Below, piece by piece: positions 1,535 through 32,900 of a stretch of DNA of 64,000 bases (the first letter of the stretch is position 1; the number at the start of each line of letters is the position of its first letter). Made by a program: the position numbers and the translations under genes. Under the pieces are notes generated by a model. That model was given only the letters and a program-made list of their open reading frames with translations, was not told the origin of the DNA and did not search any database. The stretch comes from Trichoplax sp. H2 (Eukaryota), in contig NOWV01000141.1 of NCBI GenBank assembly GCA_003344405.1, positions 124,001 through 188,000 of the forward strand. The letters run 5' to 3'.

Positions 1535-4500
1535 ATGGATGATAGCGATCAAGTTCAAGAGCAAGGCTCCGTTTTCTGCTGCTGTTTTACTCTATCCAAT
1601 AAGGTAACTTTGATAAGCACCTTGAAGTATGACTACTGAGCTAGAAGAGAATACTGTAGGATATTTTTCTGCCTTTATTGATTGATTTAATGAATACGCC
1701 ATTGAAATACTCGTATGCTGACCTTTGTGCAGTATGCTATGGCTATAGGATATCATTTCCTTGCAGGCCAGATACTTTATGGATGCCAACAGCAGATTGT
1801 GCCATGATGGCGCTATCGTAATAAAAGAATGAAATTTAATCATGACATGTCGTGATTACCCTTCCATAGGGCAAGCACATTGCTCTGCCTATGGCGCAGT
1901 AGAGTAATCTCTTTGCAGTACAGGCTTAAGTCAATAATTAAATAATTATTTAAGAGTATATAATTAATCGATGTTATTGATATCAGCAAATTCCTCCTTA
2001 AGTACTTTGGCAGATTGCTATCGAAAAGTAATTGACAAGTGTATTATCGTACTTTATGCTATACGAGCAAGTTAATACCTTGGCTAGCAAATGATTCTGT
2101 TTAATTAAACGTGAGATTAAATGATAGAACTTACTGTTGTTTCGTCGAAAAAGAATGATTTTGCTAAAGGCCACCGTTTATTAATTGTCAAAAGAGAGCG
2201 ATTGCAAATTGATATCACGTCAAAATGGGCACTTCCAGAGAGTTCATCAAATATAAGACTTACAACAGTAGGAAAAATTTTGTGATGTAGTACTACTGTA
2301 AATTGTACTAAGATTGCCTGCTGCAATAGGAAGAATTCTCGAATGTTGTCAATAGTTGTTCATTGAATAAGACCTGCTACAGTAGAAAGAATTCTCTTGC
2401 TAGAAGCCGTAATTCTACATTTTACCAAGATAGCAAATTGTAATGCGCTATCTACAGCACGTCGATAAATCGTTCCAAGCTACTGCAGAAAATGATTAAT
2501 CATTCCCCTCTACGCCGCAGCCTTCAAACTCAATACTTTACTTACAGTAGAATAGGTAATGCTTATAATAATGGGTTGCTTTAAATTCATTGGTATATTC
2601 TTTGGGAAAGTGATTTCATAACAATTTTTTGCCATTCTCAGTAGAACATAGCAATGCTCATATTTTATTCTTTTCGATCAATACTGTACTGAGAATGGAC
2701 TACTGTAACTCTGATATTATTAGGTTGTGCATCAAACTTTCTGCCATTAATACTGCATTATCATACAACGTATTCTAAAATTCAATCAATTCTTCTTCTT
2801 AAACTCGTTACAAAATACTACAGCTAAACGATATATTCAGAGACCAGTAAAAGAGAGCACTATTTACTTTGAGCAACACGTATAAGTCGATCTTTTAGAC
2901 TTTCTACTAATTTAGAATGCTTGTAGCTCTTCGTTCAGATAGGATCAAGGAAATGTCCTCCATCAAAGTCTTTGATTTCAGTCATCCGCACAAAATCTAA
3001 CCTTATCTTACTTGAGCCTGATGTTGAAAATCTTGGCATTACTACAGTATTGATAATTAATGTAAACTACTTTCAAGAGATTAGTGATATAATGTAGCTT
3101 AACGTAGATCAAAGTGAGTATCATCAGCGAACATGACTTGAAATGGACTAATAGTTTAGAGATTTGATCATCGATTCCTTAAGCCTGTTCTGTGCACTCG
3201 TAAATTGCATTCTGGTTGGAAGCAGTTTGAGCCCATGAAATTGTTGAATTATACACAATAGCTCACTGAATCTGCCTTATCCTAGTCTTGGATCATTTCA
3301 TTTAATCAGCGTACCTTATCTTAATCTTAGATTTCTAGAAAGAACAGTTGCAGTAGTCATAAAGGTGGAAAAGTTCTTGTGTACAGCCTATTCTGCGTGT
3401 TGTTCAATAGCAATCTGATCAAAAGCAATTTGGGCACGATTTTACTGAATCATAGACAGGGTCTTATTTAATCTACCTTATCCTTCTACAGTATTAACTT
3501 GACGATCAATCCATTTATATTATAGAATCCTGAGCAAATTGGTGAAAGAACCAGACTATTGACTGCTCAACCTGTACCCTCCAATCTTCTTGGACAAAAT
3601 GAAAATAATCAGGAAAAGAATGATCCCGCTACGTTAGAAAATACCTCTCCGGAAAATCCATCTCTATCAACTCATCATAGCAGAACTAGCGATGAATCAG
3701 TCACCACTGCTTCTTCTAGAAGTTCATCTCTATCTCAGATCTCAGATCGTCTAGATGGTCAGATCGAGACTAGAGAAGAAATAAATAACGTTAGCCTGTT
3801 TAAGGTTAGTAAGAATTTCATCTTCAACGAAAAGATGGGAAATACAACGGTCGAGATTTGCCTGCGAGTATTTCCTATCGTATTCTCCTATTATATAGAG
3901 CCAGTGTTTGTCATTCAAAACTGATTACTCGTTATAATTATGCATGATCTCAATTTGATTTGCAAAACTTCTGACCAATTTGACGTGTATCTTGACATAA
4001 TTATTGAGAAAGATATTGAGTCACTGTGCACTAATTTCAAAAACTCTCTTGAAGCAATTAGATTATATAGTATCAACATATTTACCGTACAGCATCATCT
4101 TAGCTACTCAACTCATAAATAACCGAAAGAATAATCTTTATCTTATCATTTTAAATATCACCATGATGGTATTTAAGGGTAATCGGTTAAACTCTCTTTC
4201 CAGTTGATTCTTGACGCCCTTAAATTACCACAAAATGAAGGCTACTTTGGTAAAACTTGTACTGGTATTGAACATCGTAATCGACGTTATGTATTTAAGC
4301 AATGGAATTATCAGGTTGTAAAGAAGTAACTCAGCTGTTGAAATGCAATTCTAATTACTTATAGCCATGTATTCATACCTGAATTATCCAATAGAGTAAT
4401 AAATAGACCATCGACTTAGAGACATTCATTTGGTTTGTAATAACACAAATTTTTACCGTGCTAATTCTTCAGATTGTTCTTAAAGCGAAGCAACCACTTG

Positions 4501-6465
4501 AAGAAGGTGCAAGGATTTTAGCAGGGTAACCTCATTTATAGATAGATTTACTATTGCTATCAGGCATTTCGAATTAAAATTTAAACATTAAAGATGTTCA
4601 TAACTATTTTTCGTGATTGAAGATTAAAACATAGGAATGTAATCAAGGTGCTAGGATTTTATAAAGAACTGAATGGAGTTTTAGAGGAATGGGGTGTTGA
4701 AAGCTTAAGTGATCGAATGATGGAAACGGTAAATAATAGCTTCTTTATATCGTTCCAGTCGTGCAATAAATTTTATCTACTGAAAGCTTTTCTTCATCTA
4801 GCAATCAATATTAATATATTTAGATGATAGTTGAGGCGAAAGACTATTCGCTAGACTTCTATTGGAATTCATTTTTTTATCTGAACTTATATTTAAATTA
4901 TGCTCTACATTGTACATTATAGGACAACAGTAGGGTATTAGAATGCTTTCAACGCCACAAAATACTTTGTGATGTTGTGGAAGGATTATATTATTTACAC
5001 TCAAAATCAGTAGTTCATAACAATTTAACTGGGTAAATATTGAAAAATAGCATAACAGTTACTTGTACCTTACACCGATTAACTCTCTTCGCCTTCTTTT
5101 CTAGCAATAATATAATTATAACTAAGGATGGGACAGCTAAAGTAGCTCATGGTGGCTATTACACAGTCTTTCCTAAAGCAAAGTCCAGTATCAATTTGGA
5201 TAGTTTTAAAAATTTTCGTCATAAACTTGGTTACTACAGTTCTAGGGCATTAGGAGGAATACCTGAAATACCCAATGATATTTTCAGTTTAGGAGCTGTA
5301 AGTCATACAGAATTCTTTAAATTTACTATTTTGGATTGTGTGCTAGAAAAGGTATCGCAAAATGGTACTTGTCAATATGGTGACAAAGGAGAATATGTGT
5401 TGTAACAAATATTGATAGCTGTCAATTTTCGTCTTGAAGGTTATTCTATTACTTGTGACTGGCAAGGAACCATATGGTGAAAACGATGAATACGTATTTG
5501 CTGTAAGTTGCTCTCCAAACCGAACAGATTTACTTCTGTAATCTAGATAGATCGAATATCGTATACTAAGCTTCAGACAACGTTGTCTAGATTATATTGG
5601 TAAATAATTCTTCAAAGCATTCTGGAATTGAAATTGTCAATTAGTTAATGATATTGCTTCATACTTTGCCTTGTTACTCTTTATTCTTACCCTTACGCCT
5701 TTAAATTTCTGTCATTTCACTTGCTAATGAACTGACATAAACTAAATTAATTTTATGGTGCGAAATTATACGATTTAAATATACCTCGCAGTTTACTAAT
5801 AACTCACAGCTGAACCATTGCTCTTTCCATGTGCATACTGTATTGATAATAGCACAGTTGTAAAATTTAGTTTACTTTAGTCAAACCAATGATTATGATT
5901 ACATTCGTATACAGACCAGTAGATTATACTTTAATGCAACGTCATTGAATGATACACTGATTAATTATAATTGATTGTATAGAAATTTTTACTTGAGGAT
6001 ACGTCGAAATGGCATAAATTAAAAGATGAAAGAATAGTATGGGTAAAGAGACGATCTCAGTTTTCTAGTAAGACATTCAGGAAGGCCTTGCTTAAAATTG
6101 CTAAAGATTGCATGAAAGAGAAAACTAACGATAGACCGACCTTAAATAAGGTTTGACATGCTATAGAATTTTAAAATGTACAGTTTTATTATACCCGATT
6201 TAATTCCGCGTAATTGCCATTGCAGTCTTTAATAGCTATTTTGATAATACAAGTATTAGCTCTGCTGATGTTGATTATAAGTATCGTAGGAGCTTTGTTA
6301 TCTTATGACATGCTACTTTGTAACCATCTTGAATAGATTAAAGGCAAGCTAGAGCGCTATAAGACAGCGTATTTTACCTTTGATTATAATATTCCAAATG
6401 AACACATAGAAAGCGGCGAAGATAATAAAGATGAAGAGAGTGATACATCGTCTTGTACTTTTTAA
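1535..6465 (+). CDS. PK1: Pelle/IRAK-like pseudokinase, ~426 aa, N-terminal Cys-Cys-Cys, no death domain
   Basis: Phase-consistent GT-AG exons 1535-1603, 3526-3804, 4204-4314, 4473-4525, 4623-4728, 4923-5032, 5105-5297, 5440-5502, 5983-6150, 6337-6465. Motifs: EGYFGKT, YVFK, LKHRNV, EGLYYLH, VHNNLTGNN (HRD site), KVAHGG (DFG site), DIFSLG, CMKE..DRP. Exon 1 (MDDSDQVQEQGSVFCCCFTLSNK) is supported by homology to PK2 exon 1. Confidence 0.88.
1629..1965 (+). pseudogene. Possible decayed diadenylate cyclase (DAC/DisA_N)-like relic inside PK1 intron 1
   Basis: One frame with ~6 stops reads ...ARYFMDANSRLCHDGAIVIKE*NLIMTCRDYPSIGQAHCSAYGAVE*SLCSTGLSQ*LNNYLRVYN. This echoes the DAC motifs HDGAxxI, GxRHRxAxG and SEE in the correct order, but may be chance. 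Confidence 0.3.
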
Positions 6466-6925
6466 AAATTTAAATGTTATATGAAAATATTGGACCTGAT
6501 ATACTTATACAAAACCTTTCATATGTCCTTGAAAATGGACAACATTGAATTTATAGAATAGATACATAAAGTAAACTCCAAAACAATTGTTTTAAGTAAT
6601 GTTATCTAATAGCTCTATTGGCATCCTTTCAAGTGAAATCTAAACAACAGTATGCTATCCAATTCACGATTCAGTAAATATTTCGTTCTTTGTTCCTTCG
6701 ATTACGCTATTTGTGCCTTCATGGTAAAAAGAAGTCTTTTGATCTTGGCACGATAAATTCTATAAAGTTATACAATGTACACAGCACATTTCCTGGAAAA
6801 CTGCGCTGGCTACAGAATATTTATCTGCGATACATGAAGTAACAATACCGTTGGATAATTTTTTTCATCTTTAGCACCCGCATTGTTAAGGTCTGATTTT
6901 TGATTAGCAGGCATTTGTTGCATAC

Positions 6926-8309
6926 GTATTCATATGTTATAGGTAATGGTAATGTTTCAAGTATGCATTCTTTGCCATAATGCAGGTGCTGATATAAAAT
7001 TATACTATTTAAACAACATCCTGATATTATCCATTTCGTTAATACTTGTAGAAGATTGTAAAAAATGCTACATGTAGCAGAAAGCTGGCTAAATTTTTGG
7101 AGCCTAATATAAAGCCAGCTTTCTATCTCTATGCATATAATTTCAAAAAATCAGAATTTCTACGTATTCTTCCTTATTGATAGCTCCAGAATAGTCCATT
7201 TACGAAGAAATGGTATTGCTATATCAGAAGCTGATCGTTTTGAGTACCGCTTGTATTTTTTAAATGGATAGCGTGTAACTTTGATCTCAAATGTAATATC
7301 TATATTCGCAGTTCTATCTATCTATCCTTTGTTTGCCATTTCTAGGAATAAAAGTTATTATAACAAAAAATTTCATGTATTCATCAGTATGCTGCCTACA
7401 TATTTAACTTTTCTGTTTTAATAATTTTCGAAGTAATACCGGAGCCATAGCAGTGCTGCACAATTTGAGCCTATTAATTACGATCTCCATCATGGATGAC
7501 AATATTACGAAAGGAATTATTAAAAAGGATAGTTAGGACCTAAGTTTAGTCTTCAATCAGGGCATTTTATTTCATTCTGATGATATATTTCTTTAACATC
7601 AAGCGAAATTTCCAGAATATTTCTAGTCTAGCACTGATATTCATTATTCTTTCTGTGTAATTAAATGTGGATATGAATCATTGCAATGCAGTTTTATGTC
7701 TAGTATGAGCTTGATCGAGGCAGAAAGATGATACAACGTAGCTATATGAGTGTAAATAGATCCAGCGAAAGGACCACTGTCAGTTAACTCACCCTCAATT
7801 AGAAGTTATCCTGAAATATTAATTTTTATATTAAATCTATAGAGTATCACAATTATCATAATCATGTTAAAAAAATCACCACACCAGATCAACTTTTCCT
7901 GTGATAAATTTGCATAACCATACACTTATGTCTCCATTCTTGTCATTGCTAGCTTGATTACCTACCTAAGAATCTAATTTTCAATTTAATAACTTTATTC
8001 TGATCCATATGTTCTTTTCAGCAAGATTACCTGTAAAACTATTTACAATAATGATGAGCAAATTATAGCTGAAGGTACTATTGAGTAAGCGATGAAACTC
8101 GCAGTATGCCTCTACTTCACATTTCCGTCCTAAATCGACAACCTTGTGATTTACTAAAGAATTTTATTTACTTTTAAAATAATATATCAACAAAACAGGT
8201 TTTCTATCCATTTCTTATAGGCATTTTGTCAGCCATGATGTCATCTTTAAGATGTAATTCGTTGATGGATTGTCCAGTTACGATAAATCAATGAAGGCCA
8301 AATATTTCA
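6926..8309 (-). pseudogene. Probable multi-exon pseudogene of unknown family
   Basis: AG/GT-bounded segments, several phase-compatible, e.g. *LLIEGELTDSGPFAGSIYTHIAT|KNNEYQC*TRNILEISLDVKEIYHQNEIKCPD*; AQIVQHCYGSGITSKIIKTEK|NGKQRIDR[extra GATA frameshift ~7320]TANIDITFEIKVTRYP..KNT|LQKFSQLSATCSIFYNLLQ|HLHYGKECILETLP. Boundaries approximate. Confidence 0.4.
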
Positions 8310-9149
8310 TATTTATCTTAACTAGATATTCAATAGATAGGATACAAAGTATATGAAATAATGAATCAAATGATTGGGCTATCAAATTCAAATTAAATCG
8401 CTAAAATACGGCAAAATATAAGATCGAACATGTGTATGCCCTCGTAGAAATCGCTGTAAATTGTTACTTGAGGTATCAGTTCGTTTTTTATTCACTAGCA
8501 TCAATAAGAAGATGTCTATATCAAAAATATAATAAGGAAACTACTGATAATTAATTGTCGATTATTAGCAATCCATTTTACATTAAATTTATGTGTAACA
8601 AACTTAATTAGCAACCCATTCCATATTTAATTTATAGGTAAACAGGCTTAATGAATGCATAAATCGAAAATACTACAATGACATTTATTCATAACAATTT
8701 TCGATGATTAGCTATCCATTCCATATTTAATTTATACGCAAACGGGCTCGGTGAGTGCATCGAAGTGGTATAATAATTAAACTGTATTCATAAGCATATA
8801 AACAGAAATTAGTCATTTCAACATCCTATTTTGATTAGATCGAGGCTAAATGTATACAGTACTAATGCTATAACAGACAGTGCTCCCTAGAAATCCTAGT
8901 ATTATTGTCAATATATTTACTCGTATTCTTTCTTTTTCTTCTCTTACATTCATTCTTTACTATTATTTTTACGGCGTAAAATAAGTTTATTTTATCTATA
9001 TCCCATTCTCCAGCCTTTACTTTAATTCCGCCTTTTTCATAGTTTTGTAGCGCCATAGCAAGATTGCCAAAATTGATTAAAAGTAAATCAAATTAATACT
9101 ATTTCATATCAGCAGTCAGCTTACCGGATCAACAGAGAAGTCATAAAAT

Positions 9150-12100
9150 ATGGCTAACAACGATCAAGCTAAGACGCAAAACTCCTTTATCAGGACATGT
9201 TGCTGCTTCTATAATGGAGAGAACAAGGTATGCTGGAACCTATCTGAGATTAGAATAATGAATATAGGTGAAATTGTTGGTTAAGGCTGCTTTAGTAAAT
9301 AGCAGTCAAGATGTTTGTACGTGATGTACCAGTAAAGTACTTTTTTAGCTGTATGCACTGTACGCAGATTACTATAATTAAATCGAGAATATCACAGAAA
9401 AAGCAATTAATTATTCATTGGTGATCCGTAGCTCAAGATGATTACTTTGATGCCAATAAATCGTCTATATGTCGGAATAAATTATATTACAGTAAAAGCA
9501 ATTATTAATTCATGCATCGTAGTAGTAAGTCTACAAAGTTAATAGCGGTGAACGTATATTGTCCATATCTGACAATAAATCGTCTTACAGTAAAAAGTAA
9601 TAATTAATTTTGGTATCGCGATAGTAAGTCTACGAGGTTACTAGAAGTTGGATATGTGATATGACAAAGAATTGAATTGCTCCTTTTATACATTGATAGA
9701 TCAAATGCTTGCACAGCCATAGGCATAACCATTTTAGACGCTGTAATTTATTATTTTTGCTAGTATTCCAACAAAAAATGCTAAATTTCCATGTCCTATT
9801 GGTTAATTAATCGGTTATACTGCTGTAGAAAATCATCATCTGCTTGGAAGCGTATATTCGTATTGTTATCCTACTTATGATAACCCATTCTCTCTACGAA
9901 TGCAAAATCACGGTAGACCGTCCCGGGCTTCTCTAAATGTCTTAATATCATTAGTGGTAGATACCTTGAGAGTTATTTCTACTTTTTGATCTTGAACGTT
10001 AAATATGCCGATAACTTATTTATATATTCTCAGTCACCACTGCCCTTGATTTCCAATACACGTATATAGATATAAAGCCATACCTACAGCTGGATGCTGT
10101 CGGGTAGAAATAGGGCTAAGAGAGAAACTAACAATCCTTAAATAGAACCATTTTGTACTTTACTCTATGTATATTTGTCACGGTACGAATTACCGTGAAG
10201 AAATAGCCATCTAAATTTGGTTAATATAATATAGTGATAATATATTACAACTAGTTACTTACAGTAGGAATTACTCTAATTATAAATGTGTTACAATAAA
10301 TCTAATGCTGTGCTGTAATGTGTACTGATATGATTCTGTGAATGAACATATTGTAGCCTGACTGTGAAAAATTAGTAAGTAGATGTTCTCACCTAAGTAT
10401 TTTTATAAGATGACTCGTGAATGTTAGCTGCTGTAGAAGGGTATATAAGCCCATCAGATAGTTGAAATAAAGCAGTTCTCAATTGTATAGTTGTTTTAAC
10501 GTAGAAGCAAAGGCGTCTAAATTCTTGTGAGGTAGTTAAGGGATACTGAATCCCGGAGACTATAGTAATTTGGAGATTTGTTTTACGTTATCCTTGTCAC
10601 GAAGCTGGTTTGTGAAAATATTATACCTGTATGCAAGGTTGAAAGNNNNNNNNNNNNNNNNNNNNTATAGTGATAATATATTACAACTAGTTACTTACAG
10701 TAGGAATTACTCTAATTATAAATGTGTTACAGTAAATCTAATGCTGTGCTGTAATGTGTACTGAAATGATTCTGTGAATGGACATATTGTAGTCTGACTG
10801 TAAAAAATTAGTTAGTAGATGTTCTCACCTAAGTATTTTAATTGTATAGTTGTTTTAAGGTAGAAGCAAAGGCGTCTAAGTTCTTGTGAGGTAGTTAAGG
10901 GATACTGAATCCCGGAGACTATAGTAATTTGGAGATTTGTTTTACGTTATCCTTGTCACGAAGCTGGTTTGTGACAATATTATACCTGTATGCAAGGTTG
11001 AAAGGTACAAAGCCACAGGAATAGAAAGTGATGGTATAGAATTAACCCTATCACAGTAAAATGAATCATCATGTTGCATGAATAATTCTATAACTTCCTG
11101 TTACATAGAATATACCTAACTACTATTCACTAGTTTACTGAGAATCGCAGCATCTTATGCTCTCTAATTGATCAATCGCGTAATGTTAGAAAATAAAAAT
11201 CTCCTCGATAATAGAAGCAACGCTCTGATACGTATGATGATAACTTGAAATTCGTATTTCTGGTTTGATAAACCATACTATGCAACACATAATAACGATA
11301 TGTATCACAGTAAATTAATTCGAGCAGGTTAGTCTCTTAAGATCTCTTAGGCAGACGATCATATTTATATCATGCTTACAGGATAAATTAGTCAGTTATA
11401 CTGAAGGTTGGGGTAGAAAATTCCACCCTCAGTCAAAATTTCTGCTGCTAAACACTAAAGGTAAATCAGATGAGCACAAAAACCAGCAAAATTAACACTA
11501 TAGTAAGATTGATTGAATAGACCACTGTATAGCCTGATCCACTAAGATGGATTACATCGAATCTATCAGGATATAACAATTCTTTTCAGCTGGGAACTAC
11601 TGTAGTTTTGCCTATTGGATGAAATGGCCAAGGCAATTTGCAACTCATATAACATGTACATGAATTTTTAAGACATATCTTCCATAGCATACTAGGTCTA
11701 TTTTGTCATTTTATTAAAATCAATTAATAGGGAGATAATGGAAACCGCAAAAACTACGACAACGAGGGAAGCTATTATCGAACTGATGTAGACCATGAGA
11801 AATCTCTATATCAAAATAAATGTGTAGTAAAATCCATCACCAACTCTTTCGCTTATTGTTCATGGCCGTCTATAAACGAAGATCCTCTAGTGGATCAAGA
11901 TTCCAGTGAAGGTGCAAGCGACTTTGTTGAGTCTGGTCTTTATCAGGTTAGCATTGATACTATCATCGATGAAATTAAGAATGAAATGTAAAATGTCTTT
12001 AATGTAACTTGTAAATATAATTTACTTGATAAACCCAATCCTTAACCGGCTTGGTTTCTTACGAAATAACTTTATTGAATTTACAGATATAGAATGAACG

Positions 12101-14590
12101 TATAAGCTTGTTTCGATCTTCTACTCTTCTTGTAGGCTGAATTATTCGGCCGAGACTTTGCTTACCTATTACAAGTTATTACTCTTGAAACGGATCATTA
12201 TTTAAATAAATTTTAGCCTGTTTTAGAGCACTTGCAGCGACAATATCTCTTTTAAAATTCGATATCTACGTTGTTCGATAAGCATTGCTTTAACTTTCCC
12301 TATAGGCTATCCGTAAGTCCCTCACGTTGCCACAGCCAGAAGGCTATTTTGGCAAAACCTGTGTTGGAATTAAATATTTAAATCAATGTTTCGTTTTCAA
12401 ACAGTGGCATTATCAGGTTGGTCATGACTAATGCATCTAGTCTAGTACAATTTAAGCATCGTTAACCTAATGCCTAAGCTTAAATAATCCTGATCACTTC
12501 GTATCAATTCATTCTTGTGATTACAAATAATGTATCATCTGAAATCTGACTCAGATCGTAATTAAAGCTAGAAAAAATCTTCGACAAGGAGCAATGCGTT
12601 TATCTAAGTATATCTTTAACTTGATCCAGTTTTTAAATAATCTTTTATAACTGTAAAGATAGTTTTCCATTTTAGATCACCAGCATATTAACACCCGTTG
12701 GTTATCTCTGTTAAAGATTAGAGCATAGAAATGTTATCAGGGTACTACAATTCTATCTAGAATTCAACGGAGTTGTAGAGGAATCTGGAGCTGAAAGTTT
12801 AAGTGATCGTATGATTGATATGGTAAAGACTAATTTCAAATTTAATGCGAGCCCCATCATGACAGTTAATTAAAAGAAAATCAATCCATTACCATCTATT
12901 CTAGTATATAGCACTTTAAGGACCATTTTAGGACAGATTATATACACACCTGTTGATGAGGATTGGATTAAGTTTCATTGGAACTTTGTTCTTAAGCTAT
13001 GCTCTACCCATTCCATTGCAGAATCCAAACAGATTATTAGGGTGCTACCAACGTCATGTAATCCTTTCCAATGTGGTTGAAGGATTATCCTACCTACATT
13101 CGAAAGAAATCGTTCATAACAACCTAACAGGGTAAATTTCATTAAAGCCAATCATCGAATAAATGACCGTTATAGAGACTTATATTCTCAATTATGAATT
13201 GATTATAGGAAAAATATAATTCTCACCAGTGATGGCACCGCTAAAATAACTCATGGTGGCTATTATACGGTCTTTCCAGAAGCAATATCTAATATCAAAG
13301 TAGATGGATTTAAAAATTCTCAGAACAAACTAGGTTATTACAGTTCCAACGCATACAATGGAATAGTTGAAAAATCCAATGACATATTCAGTCTAGGGGC
13401 GGTAAGTCCTTCATTCTTCTTTCTATTCAATACTTCTTCAATTTTTATCCTACATATGTTGTTACTGCAAGCGATTGCCATTAAAATAGGCTAATGTGAA
13501 TCGTATTGGTAGCCAGTCTTGATAACATTTGAATACTTTAATTTTGGAAGGTAATCTTTCTGCTGTTATGTGGGAAAGAGCCATATTTGTGTACTGAAAA
13601 CGGAAAAGATGTTGATGCGGTAGGTTACTCTCCAAGCTAAAATGGATTCCTTATAACTGCTTTAAAAAAAATTTGTTCCTACCATTCCTAGTTACTTTAG
13701 ATTCAATCTATTGAATACCTATCGATCATAATATGATTTTCATATAGAAATTTCCTCAACTATGTCACAGTCTACAAATCAACTTACAATAACTACTTTA
13801 AATGTTTTCAAGTCAAGGATATTTAACTATATCTTAAGAATCTGGATCTGTCATCTTGTTTCTTAAAATGTACAGCTAAAATAGATATCAAGCGCTTGTA
13901 GATCTATTAGTGAATTCGCGATAGCATTCTAAAATTAGTTCGTCTAGTCAGCGATTATTTCATATAAAATATTACCTTTCAATTATGATCTATCGCTAGA
14001 CTGCGATAGTTTATTTTAGCGTAAGCCATAAATTGTCGATATGTTAGCATGCAATAACAGGCCATAAATACTCGCCTTTTAATTTAGCATCTGTATGAAA
14101 AAATTATTCCCTTTTGACATGTTATGAATTCTCGTTGATCATCATAGAGATCAATACTTCAAGACAAGAAAAAGCGAAAAACTCTAAAAGATAAACGGAT
14201 CAAATGGGCGAAAAATCCCCAACTTTCTACTACTACATATAGAAAATGTTTAGTATCAATCGCTAAAAATTGTATGAAGGAAAAATTAAGCGAAAGACTA
14301 AGTATTTATCAGGTAAAGATATACAAACTATCAGTAAATTTCAGTTTTTAGTTGATTGAAAGCATTCATGTCTGCTATGGTGATGGATATACATCTTGAT
14401 GATATCCGTCGCTACCTTGTCGATTTTAGTCAAGAGTAGCGCTAGAAATATTCAACCTTATGTTGTAACCTTTGATGACCTTCAATAGATCAAGAAAACA
14501 CTGCGAAGCTGTTTGGATATTTATTTCAGCGGTACTGATGATATGCTAACTACAGGATATGTATCAGTGAACGATTGTGATGATGAATAA
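9150..14590 (+). CDS. PK2: Pelle/IRAK-like pseudokinase, ~400 aa, close paralog of PK1
   Basis: Exons 9150-9227 (MANNDQAKTQNSFIRTCCCFYNGENK), 11731-11946, 12306-12416, 12555-12607, 12717-12822, 13022-13131, 13209-13401, 13551-13619, 14148-14312, 14489-14590. Five kinase exons have the same lengths as in PK1 (111/53/106/110/193). Motifs EGYFGKT, FVFK, VHNNLTGKN, KITHGGYY, DIFSLG. Confidence 0.88.
10176..10976 (+). mobile_element. Solo-LTR-like element (~440 bp) in PK2 intron 1, represented twice across an assembly gap
   Basis: TGTCAC...GTGACA termini, TATATAA ~10442 then AATAAA 10466, flanking 5-bp direct repeat ATATT (10171-10175 / 10977-10981). Second copy, inverted, at 58515-58955. Confidence 0.75.
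10646..10665. other. Assembly gap (20 N) with duplicated overlap on either side
   Basis: 10666-11003 repeats ~10231-10645, including the unique flank atattatacctgtatgcaaggttgaaag, with SNPs and a ~75-bp deletion. Confidence 0.9.
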
Positions 14591-15614
14591 TCCCTTTCCT
14601 GTCGTTCATGAAAGATTCGGAAAATAAAAATGATCATACGAGTAAACTGTTAGCTAGAAGGTATAGCCATTCTTTAATCGTTATCTATAGAATATGTACA
14701 CTTTAAATCTTAATGGTTGGGAATTGACGCATTCTTGCTTAAATGATTCAGTAGTTTGCATATTACATTAATATGACATACGAAGGTCCATAAAGGTATA
14801 CCTGCATGCAAAGGATCATAGCGTTCTAATAGTTTTACAAGAATTGGCAATATAAAACACAGTTACTTGTTCACATGATTAAGCATAACCTTAATTTATA
14901 TATAGTACAAAATATGCACAATTACAGCTGCTTTGTATAGTTTATTTGCCATTTATAACAATAAAGCCAGTTTATAATTAATTATAATCATAGATTTTAA
15001 TTAACAATATCCGATTCGCCCTGCTGATATATTTTTTAGCTTGATTAATCAGGTGCAATTTCAGTTTATAGTTTCTTGACTTTTAGAGATATTGGACTAA
15101 ACCAGACTGAATACAAATATTCATACACGATATCCTTAATTAATTATACAAATATTTTCAAATATTTAAGGACTCAGAATAAGTAGATAAACATTATACC
15201 AGCGTAAATACAAATAAATATGTATAGAGAGGTTCAGATTATGTGAATTAATTCATATTATGAAAAAAGGTAAATCGTGAAATAAATCGATCGGAATTTT
15301 AAGACAGAATTGCATTATTTCTTAACTAAGGTTATGAATCACATGAAATTTAATGGACTCTATCATTTACAATCTATTTGCTATATGGAAGCAGAGTTCA
15401 GTCAATGATAAGTAAAGTATTACAAGATTATTGACACAATTTCGATTGGTGAAATTTTAGTAAACTAATAAATTAATTTTCAACGAAATAATGATTGTTA
15501 ATAAGGACACGATGCTAAGTTTTGAACAGCATCTACCGTAACAGATTGACAACTACTTCAAGTTCCCGTCATAATTTTATCGTTTAGGTTTTATTTCCTA
15601 TTTAAATCCTAGTA

Positions 15615-18600: not shown

Positions 18601-20799
18601 GCTGATGTTTAATATTAGTCGCTATATCACATGGCCAGTCATTAATAAAGATAATTTTTAGATAATTTTATAAGATACGTATATTATACGTATCCTACTC
18701 AGATGTTTCATACTGCCAAATTAAATGGCCAGCAATTAATTCTTGATTGTTCCTACATTTAATTGGATCATCATTCAAAAGGGAAAAAATGCGTCAAACC
18801 CTAAACCAGAAGTTCATAGCTATGAAAAACTAATTCACTATTTTCACAATGTGTCACAGAATGATTGTAAAGCACCAATTTGGTAGTTTCCTCTGTTGAT
18901 AATACTACATCATCATATCTTTCTGAGTATAAAAATATCATCAACTCCTCTATAACAACTATGAAGCTCATCCTACTCTGTCATTTCAGTATTAGCATCG
19001 AGTATTATCTTGCTAGAAAATTGATCCGGAAGCATGAGTTTAGAATCCTTAATACTACAATTAATAACCTCCAGATTCAGCTTTCTAATGGCAACAGCTC
19101 CTAGCTTTCGAATTTCAGCTTTAAAAACTTGACCAAATTCACCCTCACCGAGATAGGCTGGATAATTAATTTCGCTTGACGTAATAATGTCCTTTAACGC
19201 CATCATAATATAACAAGTATCCATTTAGATATTGCATCCGCTATACAATTTATGCTATCACATTATCTTTTACCGATCTGAGTATTCGATGAGGATTGAC
19301 TGGCTGCGATATGAAAAATAACCATAATTTGATTAATAGCGTAGTATACGATATAATTGAGGTCTTAATGGTTCCAAGCTAGCTATATGTAATTACAATT
19401 CCTTTAAAATTATCCACAAGCTTAAGGGTGGTTCAACTGCAATACAATTATTCAATTTAATGTATGATTATCAGTACAGTAACTTCGATTTATCCACAGT
19501 ATCTTTAGGATCGTAAAGCATCTATGTAAAGATTCAATAAAGACTAGAAATAAATATGTAAATAGATAACTAAATACTTTGCCAATAAATAAAAGTAAAT
19601 CAATATAATTGTTATGGGACGATATTGGCCAAAAACGATAGACACAATTTAAAAAATTCCTTGTTAGTTACTTCAATATTTATGATCTAAGCACGAATTA
19701 ATCTAAGTGCAACATGAATAATAAAGCTAGAATCATCGAATCGGATATCTATATTCAGTCCTAGAAATCTTACAAACTAGATATCTATATTAACTGCTCA
19801 AACAGTCTTATTTTCAAACAGGTAAACATTCAATATGAATATCCTACTGGATATTGAACCAAACAGAAACCCCAAAACCAAGAACTATTTTTCCATAACT
19901 TCAGAACTCAGGTCTAAAGTAAAATTCAATCTTGTGTTATTTAAACTAAGATTTTGGAATACTGAAATAGCGTATTAACTGAAATTAATCTTTAGTTGTG
20001 GTAAATTAGTTTCAACCAGCTATTTCATTAAATTAGTATCAGTGATCAAATATAAATGATGATGTTGGCATTGATCTTGAAAGCTTAAATGGATAATAAA
20101 TAAGATTAAATGGTAGACATAGATGAATTAAAAGTGACCATGCCACAAACATCAAAATTTTGCTCCATATAAACGAATTAGTTTTGGTGGATGTGACATT
20201 CAATATCGCATTCTAGTCAACAGGGTTAATAGTGATATCATATTGCGAATAGGTGCCTAAGATATATACTTAGAGAAGTAAAGGTTTATGCTAATATGAT
20301 TTACAGATCTGTTATGACATTATTTAGATAGAATAGGCCTCATGTTGAGTGTTAGGTGGCTACCATTTTAAATCTTGAATAAAGGTAGCGTAATTAGCTT
20401 TAATTAGAGAGAATAAGCGATTGATCAGTTAGCTTTAAATTAATATATTTTATAGAGGGATACTATAAAAGTAGACAATCTATATCGAAGACCGTTGAAA
20501 AAATTTGAGTGTCAGTACGCCTGAAGTAAGATAGCATGATTAGCATCTAGAAATTGAAAAATTGAACGTTAATCTTGGATATCAATTCAAAATTGTACCC
20601 ATGGAAAATAAATCAAGGAAATGGACACAAATTTCGCGAACTAATCACTTTTACCACACAAATAAATAATCCTACAACTGAAAACTACGACTAATGGAGT
20701 AATCGCAGTGATTATCTTTTCAAGTAAGATTAGCACTCCTACTGCATTTTGCATTACCTTGAATATAGGAGTTGATGGTTTCTTGCACGCGTTTCCCAT
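15615..20799 (-). CDS. PK3: predicted N-myristoylated Pelle/IRAK-like pseudokinase, ~317 aa, kinase domain only
   Basis: Minus-strand exons 20758-20799 (MGNACKKPSTPIFK), 19274-19303, 19069-19191 (LGEGEFGQVFK..VAIRK), 18040-18077, 17798-17912 (YNHINIV), 17084-17389 (GIASGLAYLH..MHLLLNSNNVLL..KLSDYG..GYMPPD..DSYSYG), 16876-16956, 16044-16208 (ECL..ERP), 15615-15668. All phases join. Confidence 0.87.
18290..18690. repeat. Degenerate duplication (~230 bp period) in a PK3 intron
   Basis: gagctaa.taatc.agt.tcatgagata at ~18327 and ~18556; ttataggatacg/ttataagatacg at ~18440, 18521, 18668. Confidence 0.65.
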
Positions 20800-21619
20800 T
20801 GGATCTCAGCAATGATGGATAGTGCAATTAGAAGGAGAACTTTTAATAGAAATTTCTGATTTCTTTCGTTCAAATTGAATGGCTATCACAGTTTATAATG
20901 GTGCTTTGAGTGGAGAAGATTAGACAGCGTCCGTAGCAAAATACTTGATCGAGTCTGTCAATAAAAAGATGCAATTTTCATGCAGTCAATTGGCTAGCAG
21001 AGTGATAATACAACCGATAAATCAAATAGAGTGAAATATTGTCCGTTGTACAACCAACCAATATGGCGACGTAAGCAATGAAAAGTAATCATCAAATGAC
21101 ATCATTTAGCGTTATTAGCTCTTTAAGTCTTGGCGTCCTATAGGAAGTAGATCAGACGTCATTAAACCTTTACTACGGACAATAAAGTCAATCGAGTTTG
21201 TTTGCTAGCCCATATGACGGAGAGTTTACGTTCTTGCAATGAATAACCTTCATCATTTGCTACCATATGGTTCAAGAATCTCTCTATTCCACCCGTGGAA
21301 AACTTTTATTCTGGGCTACGGACAAACAACCACTTAATAAAGCAATTATGATGGGGATGTTTCTCATTCAACCTAATATAGCTATAAATCCAATTTAGGT
21401 TTTGGCAATCAAGTTATTTTCTAATTTGTTGATTACCGTGATTTAGCCATCAATTTAATCGATCATATAACACTTTTCTAATATGATGGAGATTTTCACA
21501 ACTTTTTACTTCGAGTTCCAATTCCGTAATATTGACATAGCATATTGTAACACTAATGTTATCCCTAATTTGAATTTATCGCCGGTAAAGATCATGCAGC
21601 ACAGTCGAAATATTGACAT

Positions 21620-25025: not shown

Positions 25026-25409
25026 GTTAATATCCAACGCTCGATATGATTCATTCGAAAGCTGAAAGCATTTCTCGGTATGCTGCTGATTTCTGGCTAT
25101 CAAAATCATGACAAGACGAGAATTAGGGTTTCAATTCCCTGGAGAGAATTAATTTTCGCCACAACAAACCAAGGTCCACTACCAACTATGTCCTATACTA
25201 TAATTCAGTCTGGAGATTGATATTAATGCCTGGCAGAACCAATTCCATTAATGGAGTATTCGTAGTAGACCACAAGTAATCAAGAAGGGTAAATAAGTAT
25301 CACTGAAGCAGTAGTATAAAATCTTTCAGTAAAGGATGTGATTTAATCGCTTATTAAATAATAAGCAACAAGGGTAGAATATCCAAACAAACAGATGACT
25401 AGTATATAG

Positions 25410-26600
25410 GATGTTATCATCGAGCTGTAGTTATAGCTATTAATTGGAAAATTATACCGGTAAATAATTTTTTCCTCTAGTAATATATTGTGAATCCTAT
25501 AAATTACATTTATGCCTTACTATACACGTCTTTTTTAATAGGTACTATTAGACCGGATGCTGTATATTGTATGATTACTACCGGATCAGCTATCTGTAAA
25601 TTAATAAACGATATTTACGGCAGTTTTTATATCTAGTACCAATTATCATCTCTGTCATGGTGTACTTTAGTCGATTATTGAAGTAAAATAATATAGACAG
25701 AGTATTAAGCAAAGTTATATTATGACGATAGATGAAATGATCTGGAGATCAATTAGATAAATCTTCTCTTGAGTCTACGAAGCTTCTAATGCTTTATGTA
25801 AAGCCAGGGGTTCCGTTACTATTTTTGAACACTAGCATATAGCTGCTATTAGAAAAATTACACCTGTATGCACTTTTTCCTCCAGTAATATGTTGTAGAT
25901 CTTATCAATTAAATTTATGCTTTTATTATTTAAACATTTTTTAAAAGTACCTTTAGACCTATTGCCATATCTTGTATTAGTACTACTGGATCAGCCTGTA
26001 AATTAATAAATGACATTTACGGCAGTTTTTGTATATATTTAGGACCAATTGTCATGCGGTAATGGTGTGAATTAGTCGGTTATTAAAAATTAAACAATAC
26101 AGGCAGGGTATTAAACAAAATTATTTCATGGTGATAGGTGATAATTATTTAGATAGCTATTAGATAAATCTTCTTTCGAGTTTATGAAGCATTTAATTCT
26201 TCATGTAAAGCTAAGGATTTTGTAACTCTTCATAGACAGCAGCCTATAGCTATTATTACTAAATCATATCGGTTATGTTTTGTTTTCTCTACTAATTTTG
26301 TATGGATCTTCCAATCCTATTTATGCGTATATACGCCTTTTTTGTTTATGTATCTTATGAAAGTAACAATACACCTGTTGATTGTTGCTATATCTTGTAT
26401 AAGTAGTACTACTACTGGATCAACTACTTGTAAATTAATGAACGACATTTATGGCAGTTTTTATATGTAATTAGGATCAATTATTATCTCAGTAATGGTG
26501 TAAATTAGTCGGTTATTAAAGTAAAGCAAGATATTAAAAACAAAATTACGAGGACTGCTATCTATGACTGTAGCTAGAAACGATTATTTGGCAACCATAA
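25410..26600. repeat. Degenerate tandem triplication, ~405-430-bp unit
   Basis: tgtaaattaat.aa.gac/gatattta.ggcagttttt at ~25595, 25997, 26430; ttagataaatcttct at ~25753, 26160. Confidence 0.88.
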
Positions 26601-29600
26601 GTGTTTTTTTCTCTAGTACCTATCATGACTCATGTCATACATATTGAAGCCTTAATATAAAAGTGCAGTTCTATCAGACCAGCTACTAGTGCATTAATGA
26701 ACAAAAATTTCGTAACAAAGATATCATAACTTTGTATTAATGGAATTAGCATTGGATAGAAAAGTTTACTCATGGAACTGGCAGTTGATCAGCTTTCAAT
26801 TTTTTAAATTAAACAGATCTTGTCTCAATATTCAATTCTTATTTTTAAATTGCCCTGATTAGATATTTACATTAACATATCATCAAAGCTCATTTTTGGA
26901 TACTTTGTATGAAGATGATTTAATTATAGTAATCTTGGCAAAGTTCTAGACCGTAGGCTAATCGTTTTATGCACTACTGATATAAAATTTCAAATGTAGG
27001 GCAATCATAGGGCACAAGGTAAGGCCAATACATAAACTTCTTCTAATCTACCGAGTTTTCATTTCATCGTCAATCATGATAACTCGATAGACGTAAGCGA
27101 AAGAAGAAAGTTATATCTAACATTTAAATGCTTGCCTTGTTCATTGATAAAATAATTCTGAACGATGGCTCTATTCTAAATCCAATCGTTCGATCAAATT
27201 ATCATTAAAAAGAGAGAAAATGATGAAAGATAGCTTTTGAGTTGTATTTGCTTATTCTTAATCTCTTGTCATTCTTTTTCTGTATTCAATCATAAACCAA
27301 TTAATTGCTTGTAACTTCCAATAGCCATTTTAGTGATCGAATTGCCATCAAAGAAATTATTGTCTAGCCGACGATGTTATTCATTCAAAAACTTTGATTT
27401 AAAAGCAATAGCTTAGGTGCTGAATAGATGGGAAGCCAGTCAAGGATTGTTTTCACTCTATTGATGGACTAATTCAATAATAGTCATCATTCTGCAAGTT
27501 AATTACCATTTGATTAACTCATGGATATGTAAGGGCAAAAACTTTTGTAATCTAAACAATACGTAATAGCCAACAACAAGCCTTTACGTTTACAATAAGT
27601 TGCTTTAAATACAATATATACTAGATCATTGTCTCTTTCTGGCCGATAAACAAGGTGTTAGTGAAATCCTGAGGGAACTTTTAATATTTGTTTTACTTTT
27701 TCTATCTTCGTCTGATTCGATTCCAAGATAGAATAAGATAGTTGTTGCACAACAGTGTTCCCTTTTGCTTTATTATTAGATTACTTATATCTCGGTAATA
27801 ATAATTTATTACTGATGAAGCTAATTTAATACTTGTATTCATCTGGCTATCTGCAGAGAATCATCTTTATCTAATGCTATCCTTGGTTAAACAAGGAGCG
27901 CAATCAACATTTTAGATTCGGTAAATAAAATCAAGTAAAAGTGTCATTTTTCACCCTCATTCGATGTATTTGTACTAATTAGATTAGGAAGAACTTTCAT
28001 CATTGCTATGAGATGGATTCTAATCATCGCTGACGTTTACCTTTGTGTCTGATTTTAAAATTTTGACAGATAAAGCTAATCAGAAATTGTGGTGTGGTCA
28101 TCAGAATTGTAAATTTTAAAAACCAGCGCCTATAGTCGCGGCTAATCACCAATATACAGGTGCGATAATCATTTATCTGGTACTGGCAGTCAGAAAAAAT
28201 TAGATTATCGGAGCTTTACTATGCATACCTACAAATTGATTTCATTTTATCTAAATAGTATGCAAAGCTAAATAATCTATAGAGTTATTCATAGCTAAAT
28301 TCCGTGAAAAGGTACACTCATAATCTCATTCTGTCATAAAAATTATTCTAGCCAAGTAAAACCCTTTTAGCGCATATTAATGCTTGCGATGTATTCTATT
28401 TAGATAAACTTCGTATTCAGATGGGGTCCTAAGTTAGTTTATTATAATTACCCATATCTTAGTGGCATAACCCAATTAGTAACTATGTAGTCCTCGGTAC
28501 TAGCCTATAAAAGCTGACAATTTGTAAGTTAGGTCGTCCCGTGAAGAATATTTTAGTCAACTTTTTTTAACTGATATTGATTTTCAGGAATACTATACCA
28601 AAGCCTGTTTCAGTAAAGCAAGCATCGAGAAAGAATAAATTATTATGACTCGCGTGATCTTGTAGCTATAATACTGCTCAAAATTAGCCATTGTAAAAAC
28701 TTCTATATAAATACTACATAAACAATGACGGAATTATATTATTAGAAACCTCAAGGGAGGAGAGAAATCCCGAAGCGCTGATATTGATTTCCTGAGCATA
28801 CACACAGAACTAAAGTACTACTCTTAGCAGTTAGAATAGTAAAGTAGATAATTGTTATTTTCTGATATAATCTTATAGCAAGATAGTGCAAATTATTCAG
28901 CATTAACTGTTATGATATAGCATAGTAATAGTGAAATCAATAACAGTACGCGTTATTTTTGAAGACTAGCAAATTGGAAGAAATTATGAGCAGTAGCTAT
29001 TGATTTCTAAAGTATATTATTGCTAAAAATACAATTTTTAAACATAATAATGCTAGATTAGTTTGCATGGATTTGTCATAATGTAATACGCAGCTGATCA
29101 TAATTAGCAAACATTTGGTTATATAAAATATTAAAGTGCTATAAATTAATTAAATTATGCCATGGTGAACTCAGTAGTTGCAGTAAGATTTTTACCACCA
29201 AATTAAAATTAGCTGCATTCAAAGTTAAAATTTTAAAAGGGTATGGCATACTTCTTTCCGATCTTGTTACGTAAATAAGACAGAGTGCGGGTATAATGGA
29301 TTAATTCTTGTAAATATTAATGAATTATTATAGTTTACTTTTCTTCTCTTGCACGACAATATTAAAATTGAGATCTTATTTTCAATATAGTTTTAAGTTT
29401 AGCAAATTAGCGCACATAACGTGGGTTAGAATCCCCTTTAGATTTAAGAATTGGCAATTCTGAAAATTTTTCGACCTTATCTGCTGTGTACACTTTCATC
29501 TTACAGATTATTCAATTTATTCTGATGTGTCTTTATTAGATTGTGCAATAATTATTATATGTAAAAATCCTAATGCACGAATATGATTCCAATGAGTAAA

Positions 29601-29986
29601 ATAGTTGCTAGTCTTTTTTTAATTTTTTATCTTCACGTATTTTAAAGTTTATTCTTTATCGATCGATATTAGACTTTTGCGATGATCATTACTGTATATC
29701 ATTCCTGATGTACGATATGACAGTATTAAAAAATTACTAACAGCGGGACATTTTCTAAATGTTTCTTATATATTTTCAATTAGATGAGATTGCTAACTGA
29801 GCCAATGCTGAAGTAGTCTGCGTCTGTTATAGAAATCTTTTACGACAAATAATTTTTAAAAATTATTTACTTCACTGATACAGCTTGTACTCTTTTGTTA
29901 CTTTAAAGATTATCTGTCGCTCTATCTATCAGATGTACTTATCTAGTCACAATCAAGTCAAGAATTTTTTTTTTGATTGAAATAGG

Positions 29987-32900
29987 ATGGTGGAGAAATT
30001 ATTATACCGCTTATCTGAATTCGCTAATAATTTTACATGTTGCGGGGTATTAAGTTATAGCAATATAGAACTAATAGCAGTTGAAAATTGATATCCTATT
30101 ATCAATCTCACTTGTTGTAATTCTGCTTATATACTGTAGCTAAATACGATAACTCAATCTTATGTTATTGTACAGTGTTACCTAAGTTACGTTGCTTCAA
30201 ATCGTACGATCCTATTAGGTACTAAGTAAGCCTGAAAAAAGGCGAGAGAGTCAAGCAGAAGAAGTAATGTTGCTTCGTCCAAGAAGTGCAAGTAGAAGTT
30301 CTAGTGTTGATACGTTGAATGAAATAGATGATTATCCACCGCAGACGGTAACCTAATTAAAAATCATTTATTTTTTGCGGTTAAAATAAGATTAGCGATT
30401 CATTTGTTTGTTATCATAGAACATTCGCTAAAAAGGATTCATATTCTATTTCGATTATCACTCTACGTAGGAAATTACTCTAGTTTATAATAAAGTAGGC
30501 AAGAAACAATGTGACGGCCATTATAGCCAAAATTTGATCATACGCTACGATGGGAAAGCCTTTGTTTATAAAGTGTGGAATTTTCGTGTACGTATAACAT
30601 ATGATATTTAGCTGAATCTCAGGCTGTTTTAGGAGTAACCAAAAGACGTAATAAGTTCTTGCTCCTGATATTCATTATATTTCAATATGACTATCTAATA
30701 TTTTTATGCGGCGAATGTTTAATACTAATAAATTGAGATTAATATCATGCTAATGAAATTAAAGAATGCAGAAAAACTGAGATAAATATTGCTTTTACAG
30801 CTAGATGATTGCAAAGAGACGAGAACAGCCGTTAGGAAGCTGATTAGGTAATAAATTATCCGTCGCTATAAGTTATGGCTTTTGTTTTATTGCAGCTGCT
30901 GTTTTTATCTGAATATACAGGCTAAAACATGATAATATTTTAAAATCCTATCGGTACTATCGCTATCCTGGAGGCGTATTGGAGTGTTATTTCGAACATA
31001 CTTTAAGAGATCATATTAAGGCTCAGGTATGTCATAATAATAATAGTGCCATAAAGTGCCAATTTTAATACTCTGTAGTAATTGCCATTTCCTTCATCTT
31101 GACTTTAGCAATCAAAAAAAATCTTCCTAAATTCACAACAACGCTATCAAGTTCTTACCGATATATTAAATGGCTTGGAATATTTACATGATCATGGTAT
31201 TGTTCATGAAAACTTAACCACGTAGGTGTAGGATTGATTTAAATCTGTCATAATTCGTTGTAGAAGTCCATATGATAAGAAGTCGAAGTTTTTGTTTTAA
31301 GGTGGTTTGAAATCAAAATTATCGCTAAATAATTCATTCCCATCTAGACCAAATTAGCTAATCGTATACCTTTAGATATGTTGCATGACTGCAAAATATT
31401 TTATAACGATAAAATCATAATTGCATTAGGTACTATAAATCCGCCTTGCTCTATCTGTATAAATTACTCAAATTCCATTTTATTCTATCTTAATTGTTTG
31501 TAGAAAGAATATTTTGATTACGAACACTGGAGAAGCCAAATTAAGCGATTTTGGATATGTTAGCTTATTTCAAACGAAGTTAGCACTATCCAAGAAAGCA
31601 TTATATCACCATCATAAAATTGCTTATATGTGCCAGGATGCTCTAAATGGCCACGTTGGCAAGAAAAATGATATTTATAGCTTTGCAATTGTATGTTTTT
31701 GATTTTTGCAATTGTTACTGTATAGTCATTTCAATTATTTTAGCTTAGAATTATAAGAAACACTTTATTAAAATTAAAAATTTAATATTAAAAGTTTAGC
31801 GTTAAATTGATTAATAGGTTGCCACCGAAGTTATATCAGGAAAGCAAGCTTACGATGCCTTTAGGATCCCCCAATATCTGGTATGTAAGAGATTATACTT
31901 AAATCATACAGCCGATAATCATAATTGTATGATGTACCGAACGAGACAGTTCTACAGAATTTCTTTAACTGCTTTAGTAGATAGTTGAGTTTAAAACGTA
32001 AAGTAAAAATAATAATTAATATAAAATATGGCAAATATGATTAATATCAGTACTAATAATGGCTCAATATCAGTAATGTTGGCAGTGCAACATTAATATT
32101 GTTTATAATTTATGGACTGAGAAAACAGTCAGTTCAAAGGAGATAAAATTATTTCGTTCACTAAGAATTTTATGTAGTGCCACTCTAGAAAATATTATAA
32201 TTCATTTAAATAAGGATGAATCTTAAATCTAGCTAAAAAAAACTATGTAAAATATTAATTTTGAATTAAATCTAGCCTTAGCTAGCTATCTAGTTTTCAT
32301 TTTTTTATCGATCACATGACGAAATTTATAAACAGCAAACTAATTATGTTCACTGTTAGCTTGTTCAACTTGACTGAATTTTTATTGAGTAATCAAGTTA
32401 CCCAAGTTTGGAATGATTACAATGTTAACATTCATCAATATTAAATAATCTGGAGTTTACAAAATATTTATATCTTAACTTAATAGCGTGATTGGCTAGC
32501 TAACGAAAAATACTGGAAACATCTGAACGATAAACGTCTTGGCTCACGTCATCAGGAGAAAAAGTTGTTTTCCACTTCTATTTCTGGCAAAACTTTTCGG
32601 GTTGAATTGCTAGAAATTTGTAATAAATGTTGCAGTGAACATGCTACGAATAGGCCTTCGCTGGTGGAAGTAAGATACCGAATTCATATTTAATTAATCG
32701 ATTAATCTTAATTCTCTCTATTTAGTGAAAAGTGTTGACTTACCTATGCTATCTATACATATATTCTATAATACCGTACACTGTAAATGACGCAATGATT
32801 AGAAATGATAATAATGATAAATACTTTGCTTTGTAGAAAAGAAAATTTAGCTAACTTCACTCACTTGCATCCTTTCAAAATGCAATGCCTTATTAGTTAA

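Follow-up and report, generated by a model that had tools for sequence, protein, structure and literature searches.

Two catalytically degenerate vertebrate members of the IRAK/Pelle kinase family, IRAK3 (IRAK-M) and IRAK2, act as scaffolds and regulators. The canonical animal members, such as IRAK4, IRAK1 and Drosophila Pelle, have an active catalytic site. They also carry a death domain at the N-terminus, through which they bind MyD88 or Tube, according to PMC6321704. The same article states that sponges possess an IRAK with a death domain whereas the closest cnidarian IRAK-like genes are devoid of it, and that in Trichoplax none of the several IRAK-like genes has this domain, many of them being located in a tight genomic cluster. 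In plants, the receptor-like cytoplasmic kinases (RLCKs) BIK1, PBL1, PBS1, BSK1 and CASTAWAY harbour the same type of kinase domain, called here IRAK/Pelle/RLK (RLK, receptor-like kinase), but neither an ectodomain nor a transmembrane segment nor a death domain. Acylation of their short N-terminus is required for function at the plasma membrane, as described in PMC4279983 and PMC10873554. G2A mutants of PBL1 and BIK1 are reported to lose signalling (PMC4279983), and the membrane association of BSK1 is reported to depend on S-acylation (PMC10873554). Here, we analysed 64,000 nucleotides of the placozoan Trichoplax sp. H2 (contig NOWV01000141.1, positions 124,001 to 188,000), hereafter called the window, which is AT-rich (~31% G+C) and codes for four IRAK-like proteins, PK1 to PK4, and for a fifth paralogue, PK5.

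PK1 to PK4 have a common architecture, in which a first coding exon of very small size is followed by a disordered linker, rich in Ser and variable in length, and then by a kinase-like domain. On balance, we favour by a little the interpretation that they form a placozoan-specific tandem cluster of IRAK-type pseudokinases without death domains, located beside PK5, and that the motifs in their short first coding exons are acylation signals.

Kinase family and predicted loss of catalytic residues

Protein homology searches identified PK3 as TRIADDRAFT_56776/RDD39268.1, PK2 as TRIADDRAFT_56777/RDD39269.1 and PK1 as TRIADDRAFT_56778/RDD39270.1. The exon translations of the window match the Trichoplax sp. 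H2 proteins at 100%, and at positions where the H1 and H2 strains differ the window has the H2 residue. The search that recovered these three proteins returned no public protein for PK4 or PK5.

Pfam scans (cut-offs of 23.1 bits for PF07714 and 31.7 bits for PF00069) gave scores above both thresholds for PK3 (100.7 and 82 bits, respectively), PK1 (62.3 and 80.5) and PK2 (50.9 and 69.2); PK4 and PK5 were scanned as single exons only. Among proteins of known structure, the 26 best PDB sequences for PK1 are all IRAK4 (E values of ~4e-17 to 6e-16), and the next one, B-Raf, follows at 2e-11, about five orders behind. The best PDB relatives of PK3 are CERK1, BRI1, BAK1 and IRAK4, followed by BIK1, IRAK3 (E = 1.7e-16), Pto-type kinases and IRAK1, and PBL2 is also present among its solved relatives. 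The Pfam matches and the solved relatives support an IRAK/Pelle/RLK-type identity of these proteins, which a first-pass annotation, made from the DNA sequence without database searches, had compared with IRAK/Pelle kinases. As judged by similarity searches, PK1 to PK4 are predicted to belong to the IRAK/Pelle/plant-RLK family, in the TKL group. A search of a protein library with PK3 yielded 24054 matches at E<=0.001. The best 150 are mostly long multi-kinase proteins, and the nine long proteins that we looked up among them are all plant proteins of the RLK type. No full-length placozoan PK3 orthologue with an N-terminus was found among these best 150 of 24054 matches; what was recovered was a fragment of 114 residues.

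The same first-pass annotation had described all four proteins as pseudokinases, and degenerate catalytic motifs are indeed present in each of them. Residue-level alignments were made against IRAK4 and CERK1. In PK1, they showed that HRD is replaced by HNN and DFG by HGG, and PK2 carries the same replacements. In PK3, the alignments showed VAIR instead of VAIK, HLL instead of HRD and DYG instead of DFG. In the gene model of PK4, HRD is replaced by HEN and DFG is kept. PK5 has intact GKGSFG, VAIK, HRD and DFG motifs. A protein is considered a pseudokinase if it is devoid of at least one of three catalytic residues, namely the beta3 Lys, the Asp of HRD and the Asp of DFG. By this definition PK1 to PK4 are predicted pseudokinases, which appear to have lost catalytic residues in an otherwise conserved kinase fold. 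The 114-residue fragment, which comes from another assembly and is 80% identical to PK3, retains degenerate HLQ and DYG motifs, indicating that the pseudokinase state is not a recent accident. We also considered that PK1 to PK4 might be decaying pseudogenes and rejected this possibility, because none of the four frames is interrupted and the RNA libraries show PK1 and PK3 to be spliced. An AlphaFold2 prediction of PK1 from a four-row alignment had a mean predicted local distance difference test score of 35.8 and was uninformative on the N-terminal 117 residues.

Very short first coding exons

The sequences of the four mini-exons listed in the first-pass annotation proved exact when re-read from the window. 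The start-codon exon of PK1 (1506-1603, plus strand; coding sequence 1535-1603) codes for 23 residues identical to those of TRIADDRAFT_56778. It terminates with ..VFCCCFTLSNK, in which CCCF corresponds to Cys15-Cys16-Cys17-Phe18, and is followed by the donor gtaact. The first coding exon of PK2 (9150-9227, plus strand) codes for 26 residues that are 100% identical to residues 1-26 of RDD39269.1/TRIADDRAFT_56777. It terminates with ..RTCCCFYNGENK, with Cys17-Cys18-Cys19-Phe20, before the donor gtatgc. The start-codon exon of PK3 spans 20758-20954 on the minus strand; its coding part (20799-20758) reads MGNACKKPSTPIFK, thus starting with Met-Gly-Asn-Ala-Cys (MGNAC), and precedes the donor gtaatg. 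For PK4, the proposed first coding exon (29987-30046, plus strand) would code for 20 residues terminating with ..NFTCCG, with Cys18-Cys19, before gtatta.

To document splicing, Logan contigs from three RNA-library runs and one genomic-type run were placed on positions 1400-21399 of the window. The RNA runs, found via the same sample or study, have word shares of 0.02-0.05, and the genomic-type run covers all 30 bins at a depth of ~50-80 outside a high-copy repeat. Two of the four junctions predicted in the first-pass annotation were recovered as GT..AG joints. That of PK1 (1603 to 3526) is present in two of the three RNA runs and that of PK3 (20758 to 19303) in all three, and both are absent from the genomic-type run. 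The sides of the PK3 joint are merely 24-31 letters long because the next exon of PK3 comprises 30 nucleotides (19303-19274). Eight further CT..AC joints, as read for the minus strand, complete a nine-exon model of PK3 that has canonical sites throughout and an open frame of 317 residues, in which exons 2-9 (15615-19303) consist of the 30-nucleotide mini-exon followed by the pseudokinase domain. In the PK2 region (bins 7403-10070 and 11405-14739), there are no contigs from the three RNA runs; the predicted junction of PK2 (9227 to 11731) is used exactly by the public 400-residue models of both Trichoplax strains. Contigs of the RNA runs also cross introns unspliced (e.g. 1604-2647 and 20531-20787), indicating that these libraries contain pre-mRNA or DNA as well.

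In-frame stop codons are found shortly 5' of the ATG in PK1 (TAA, 1523-1525), PK3 (TGA, 9 nucleotides upstream) and PK4 (TGA, 29978-29980), which rules out an N-terminal extension in these transcripts. The mini-exons of PK1 and PK3 are first coding exons but not first exons. For PK1, a loose end before the acceptor at 1505 leads to an upstream exon of the 5' untranslated region (5'UTR), on the plus strand. The consensus of that loose end matches both 1-30 and 183-212, and the latter ends with GACAAA before the donor gtaaga. Positions 1-338 of the window are a 182-nucleotide tandem duplication (1.9 copies, 94% identical) that places the PK1 5'UTR donor at positions 30 and 212, and either copy may be the one used. 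For PK3, the 5'UTR contains an intron at 20955-21058, as the joint 20954/21059 is present in two of the three RNA runs.

The CCCF exon of PK1 and the N-terminus of PK2 are already included in public models. The public PK3 models XP_002112595.1 and RDD39268.1 (304 residues) begin at an ATG (MDTCYIMMALK...; 19069-19224) that falls within the intron preceding exon 3, upstream of 19191. Because they start inside an intron, these models are devoid of the first two coding exons, including the one that codes for MGNAC. The RNA joints thus show that the public annotation of PK3 needs correction in both Trichoplax strains.

Absence of a recognizable death domain

The first-pass annotation also suggested that the four genes have no death domain, and none was recognized in the proteins or open reading frames (ORFs) that were scanned. 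No PF00531 match was found at E<=1 in four public proteins of PK1, PK2 and PK3, in which only kinase domains were detected. Similarly, there was no Death match in 30 stop-free ORFs of at least 45 residues located upstream of or within PK2, PK4 and PK5, a scan that shorter or split domains would escape. The upstream ORFs of PK1 and PK3 were left out of it because transcript joints cover these regions. The RNA-based reading of PK3 has only ~30 residues ahead of the kinase domain. No death domain was seen in PK5 either, in an ORF scan of an approximate model.

PK1 to PK4 share the kinase domain of IRAK4, IRAK1 and Drosophila Pelle, IRAK4 being the best solved relative of PK1 and among the best solved ones of PK3, but they have neither a recognizable death domain nor an intact active site. 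They resemble IRAK3 and IRAK2 by their catalytic degeneration. In contrast with PK1 to PK4, however, IRAK3 and IRAK2 keep the death domain, act inside the Myddosome and have no N-terminal Cys cluster.

N-terminal motifs and a putative membrane anchor

We determined how frequently such N-termini occur among the 532 ATG-started open frames of at least 20 codons in the window. Two of them, namely PK1 and PK2, have CCC within 26 residues, 16 (3%) have CC and four (0.75%) have Met-Gly with a Cys at positions 3-6. CC is absent from residues 1-30 of all 150 best library relatives. PK1 and PK2 are 48-49% identical overall, and their linker exons have no detectable similarity. In a four-sequence alignment of PK1 and PK2, CCCF is the only place before the kinase domain where three or more consecutive residues are invariant, in agreement with the earlier observation that this motif is kept amid divergence. 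All four proteins have N-terminal cysteines, with CCC at 15-17 in PK1 and 17-19 in PK2, CC at 18-19 in PK4 and Cys5 in PK3. Only PK3 has a Gly at position 2, which is occupied by Asp in PK1, by Ala in PK2 and by Val in PK4. S-palmitoylated N-terminal Cys clusters follow no strict consensus.

Two other types of membrane attachment were considered and rejected. The hydrophobic run VFCCCFTL comprises eight residues, which does not fit a transmembrane segment or a signal peptide, and the C-termini examined (PK1, PK2 and PK3) have no CaaX end for prenylation.

The plant RLCKs match PK1 to PK4 in architecture. There are nevertheless differences. The N-termini of plant RLCKs are mostly Met-Gly with a Cys at positions 3-5, whereas the CCCF motif of PK1 and PK2 is found at residues 15-19. 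In addition, RLCKs belong to the plant lineage and are mostly active kinases, and their acylation is experimentally established while that of the Trichoplax proteins is predicted. Because of the latter point, and because the organism is an animal, PK1 to PK4 are best viewed as putative functional analogues of plant-type RLCKs rather than as members of that group.

By analogy with the RLCKs, the Cys-cluster and Met-Gly motifs are probably lipid-anchor signals. The Cys clusters of PK1, PK2 and PK4 would be S-palmitoylated, and the Met-Gly-x-x-Cys start of PK3 would be both N-myristoylated and palmitoylated. The acylated proteins would then be held on the cytoplasmic face of membranes, where they might act as non-catalytic scaffolds or regulators, in the way that plant RLCKs of the same kinase family work. 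We infer lipidation, a membrane location and a scaffold role in this manner, and the same applies to any relation of these proteins to MyD88, including the MyD88-independent recruitment proposed in the first-pass annotation.

Alternative interpretations

A number of points weigh against the favoured interpretation. All three RNA runs come from one study and are labelled as another organism. The H1 and H2 strains are too close, with PK2 differing at 8 of 400 residues, for the identity of their N-termini to carry weight. Given their residues at position 2, PK1, PK2 and PK4 cannot be myristoylated. The myristoylation consensus is worded as 'Gly in position 2 followed by Ser in position 6' in bioRxiv 10.64898/2026.02.18.706625, and PK3 deviates from it in having Lys6 rather than Ser or a small residue. 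The active paralogue PK5, whose N-terminus is perhaps MADYFRK at 38110, has neither a Cys nor a Met-Gly motif. Presumably, the N-terminus of PK3 does not conform to the PROSITE-type myristoylation pattern either. The cysteines of PK1, PK2 and PK4 are located 15-19 residues from the N-terminus, amid acidic or polar residues, a less typical placement than that of the Cys3/Cys4 clusters carried by GAP-43-type proteins. Together with the Ser-rich nature of the linkers, the departures of PK3 from the consensus, the position of the cysteines and the lack of motif in PK5 would fit another scenario, in which the mini-exons are real but are just the beginning of linkers that are disordered and can be phosphorylated. 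In that case, the pseudokinases would be soluble and be recruited, if at all, by protein-protein contacts, for instance with PK5 or with TIR or other adaptors. We find this scenario rather unlikely, since CCCF is the only block conserved before the kinase domain in paralogues that are 48-49% identical overall, with an adjoining linker diverged beyond detection. Furthermore, N-terminal CC or CCC is rare both in background frames and in relatives, and the spacing between Met1 and a Cys pair is almost the same in three paralogues that have diverged to different degrees. One of these three is PK4, whose first exon is a candidate identified from the sequence, not from transcripts, among nine ATG..GT phase-0 candidates in 29300-30218, so that eight others compete with it. 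Its acceptor at 30231 has a weak pyrimidine tract, an alternative phase-0 acceptor exists at 30219, and an internal Met near 30267 might serve as the start; moreover, as 3% of background ATG frames have CC, its presence in PK4 could be fortuitous. It is thus possible, although we are inclined to doubt it, that this exon is a chance open frame, that translation truly starts at the internal Met at ~30267 or in another upstream exon, and that the motif is present in only three of the four genes. However, the PK4 model comprises nine exons in an open frame with canonical sites, including exons of 106 and 63 nucleotides identical in length to those of PK1, and its exon sizes and phases match those of PK1 and PK2, such that a homologous phase-0 first exon is expected. 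The proposed exon is the nearest long candidate and, like that of PK1, it is directly preceded by a T-rich tract with AG and by an in-frame stop (TGA at 29978). Finally, it harbours F-x-C-C at residues 16-19, to be compared with F-C-C-C at 14-17 in PK1.

The evolutionary part of the first-pass annotation, according to which mini-exons with lipid anchors have replaced a death domain, also has a serious alternative. Nothing may have been replaced, if no death domain was ever present in the IRAK/Pelle/RLK-type kinases from which the clade stems or if that domain was lost long before the Cys motifs appeared. We regard this alternative as quite conceivable, while stopping short of adopting it. Plant RLKs, which are devoid of a death domain, give scores with the kinase domain of PK3 that equal or exceed that of IRAK4, and no death domain is seen in PK5 either. 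In PMC6321704, the domain is described for sponges but is lacking from all IRAK-like genes of Trichoplax and from the closest ones of cnidarians, a distribution that fits either polarity of the change. In contrast, the kinase domain of PK1 is distinctly closest to that of IRAK4. Sponges, an equally early branch, possess a death-domain IRAK (PMC6321704), which makes a loss in placozoans an account at least as simple.

Gene models, cluster layout and other features of the window

Exons 2-10 of PK1 (3526-6465, plus strand, with the stop codon ending at 6465) have canonical splice sites, and a further RNA joint connects 6150 to 6337. Exon 2 (3526-3804) codes for a Ser/Asn/Pro-rich linker, after which the pseudokinase domain begins, and our reading of the gene translates to the public 426-residue protein. 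The H2 model of PK1, RDD39270.1 (444 residues), contains 18 extra residues (SHTEFFKFTILDCVLEK..) that result from reading through intron 5298-5439. The H1 model (426 residues) splices out this intron at canonical sites; no RNA joint for it was found among the joints displayed.

According to the public models, exons 2-10 of PK2 (11731-14590, plus strand) comprise a linker exon (11731-11946) followed by the pseudokinase domain. Intron 1 of PK2 contains a very high-copy repeat (10071-11404), where the depth of the genomic-type run reaches ~20,000-41,000 compared with ~65 elsewhere. All three RNA runs contain the repeat as well, and numerous loose ends fall at 10466-10498 and 10976-10984; a gap of N letters (10646-10665) lies inside the repeat. 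It is probably a transposon or a satellite.

Exons 2-9 of PK4 extend over 30219-32669 on the plus strand, exon 2 starting at 30219 or 30231, in an open frame with canonical sites; the final exon is outside the model. From exon 2 onward, they code for a Ser-rich linker and then for the kinase-like domain. PK5 is located on the minus strand (35655-38110, approximate model) and has a long, Lys/Ser-rich C-terminal tail (35655-36119).

Beyond the kinase cluster, a block at 40000-44000 is richer in G+C (39% versus ~31%) and has no Pfam match. It includes two near-identical open frames of 48 residues ~440 nucleotides apart (40312-40458 and 40751-40897), and a Pro/His-rich frame is found near 42200. 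Further downstream are a CDT1-like replication-factor gene (45134-45890, plus strand; PF08839, E = 4e-10 and 3e-7 on two exons) and an intronless gene for a G-protein-coupled receptor of the rhodopsin family (53088-54170, plus strand; PF00001, E = 4e-24).

Significance for placozoan signalling

PK1 to PK5 very probably correspond to the Trichoplax sp. H2 IRAK-like cluster of Kamm, Schierwater and DeSalle 2019 (PMC6321704). The main text of that article contains no occurrence of myristoyl, palmitoyl, acylation or pseudokinase, and the model of PK3 that its authors could use begins within an intron, without the MGNAC exon. In the library searched, no paper was found that links Trichoplax IRAK-like genes with acylation, the sole co-mention being in an unrelated gasdermin review. 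The absence of a death domain, the tandem cluster and the N-termini of PK1 and PK2 were already public. The new elements are the transcript-supported start of PK3 (MGNAC), missed by both public models, the recognition that all four proteins are predicted pseudokinases next to one active paralogue, and the acylation-type N-termini that they appear to share, as predicted from their motifs. Whatever the status of acylation, the public models of PK3 in both Trichoplax strains can be corrected from the RNA joints.

One open question is how Toll/IL-1-type signalling was organized before a death-domain complex of MyD88 and IRAK existed. Kamm et al. 2019 (PMC6321704) see the main gap in the pathway in the lack of a death domain in the IRAK-like genes of placozoans and cnidarians. 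If PK1 to PK4 are tethered to membranes by acylation, this would provide a concrete and testable alternative route of recruitment and a striking parallel with the plant immune RLCKs. The four pseudokinases might have PK5 as an active partner. A bolder and, in our opinion, improbable proposal is that placozoans have an animal counterpart of the plant RLCK module, in which lipid-anchored pseudokinases would be permanent membrane scaffolds for PK5 and would relay the input of TIR or other receptors with no MyD88-IRAK death-domain Myddosome involved. If this were true, the acyl-anchored, receptor-less IRAK/Pelle/RLK architecture would either predate the split between plants and animals or have arisen twice.

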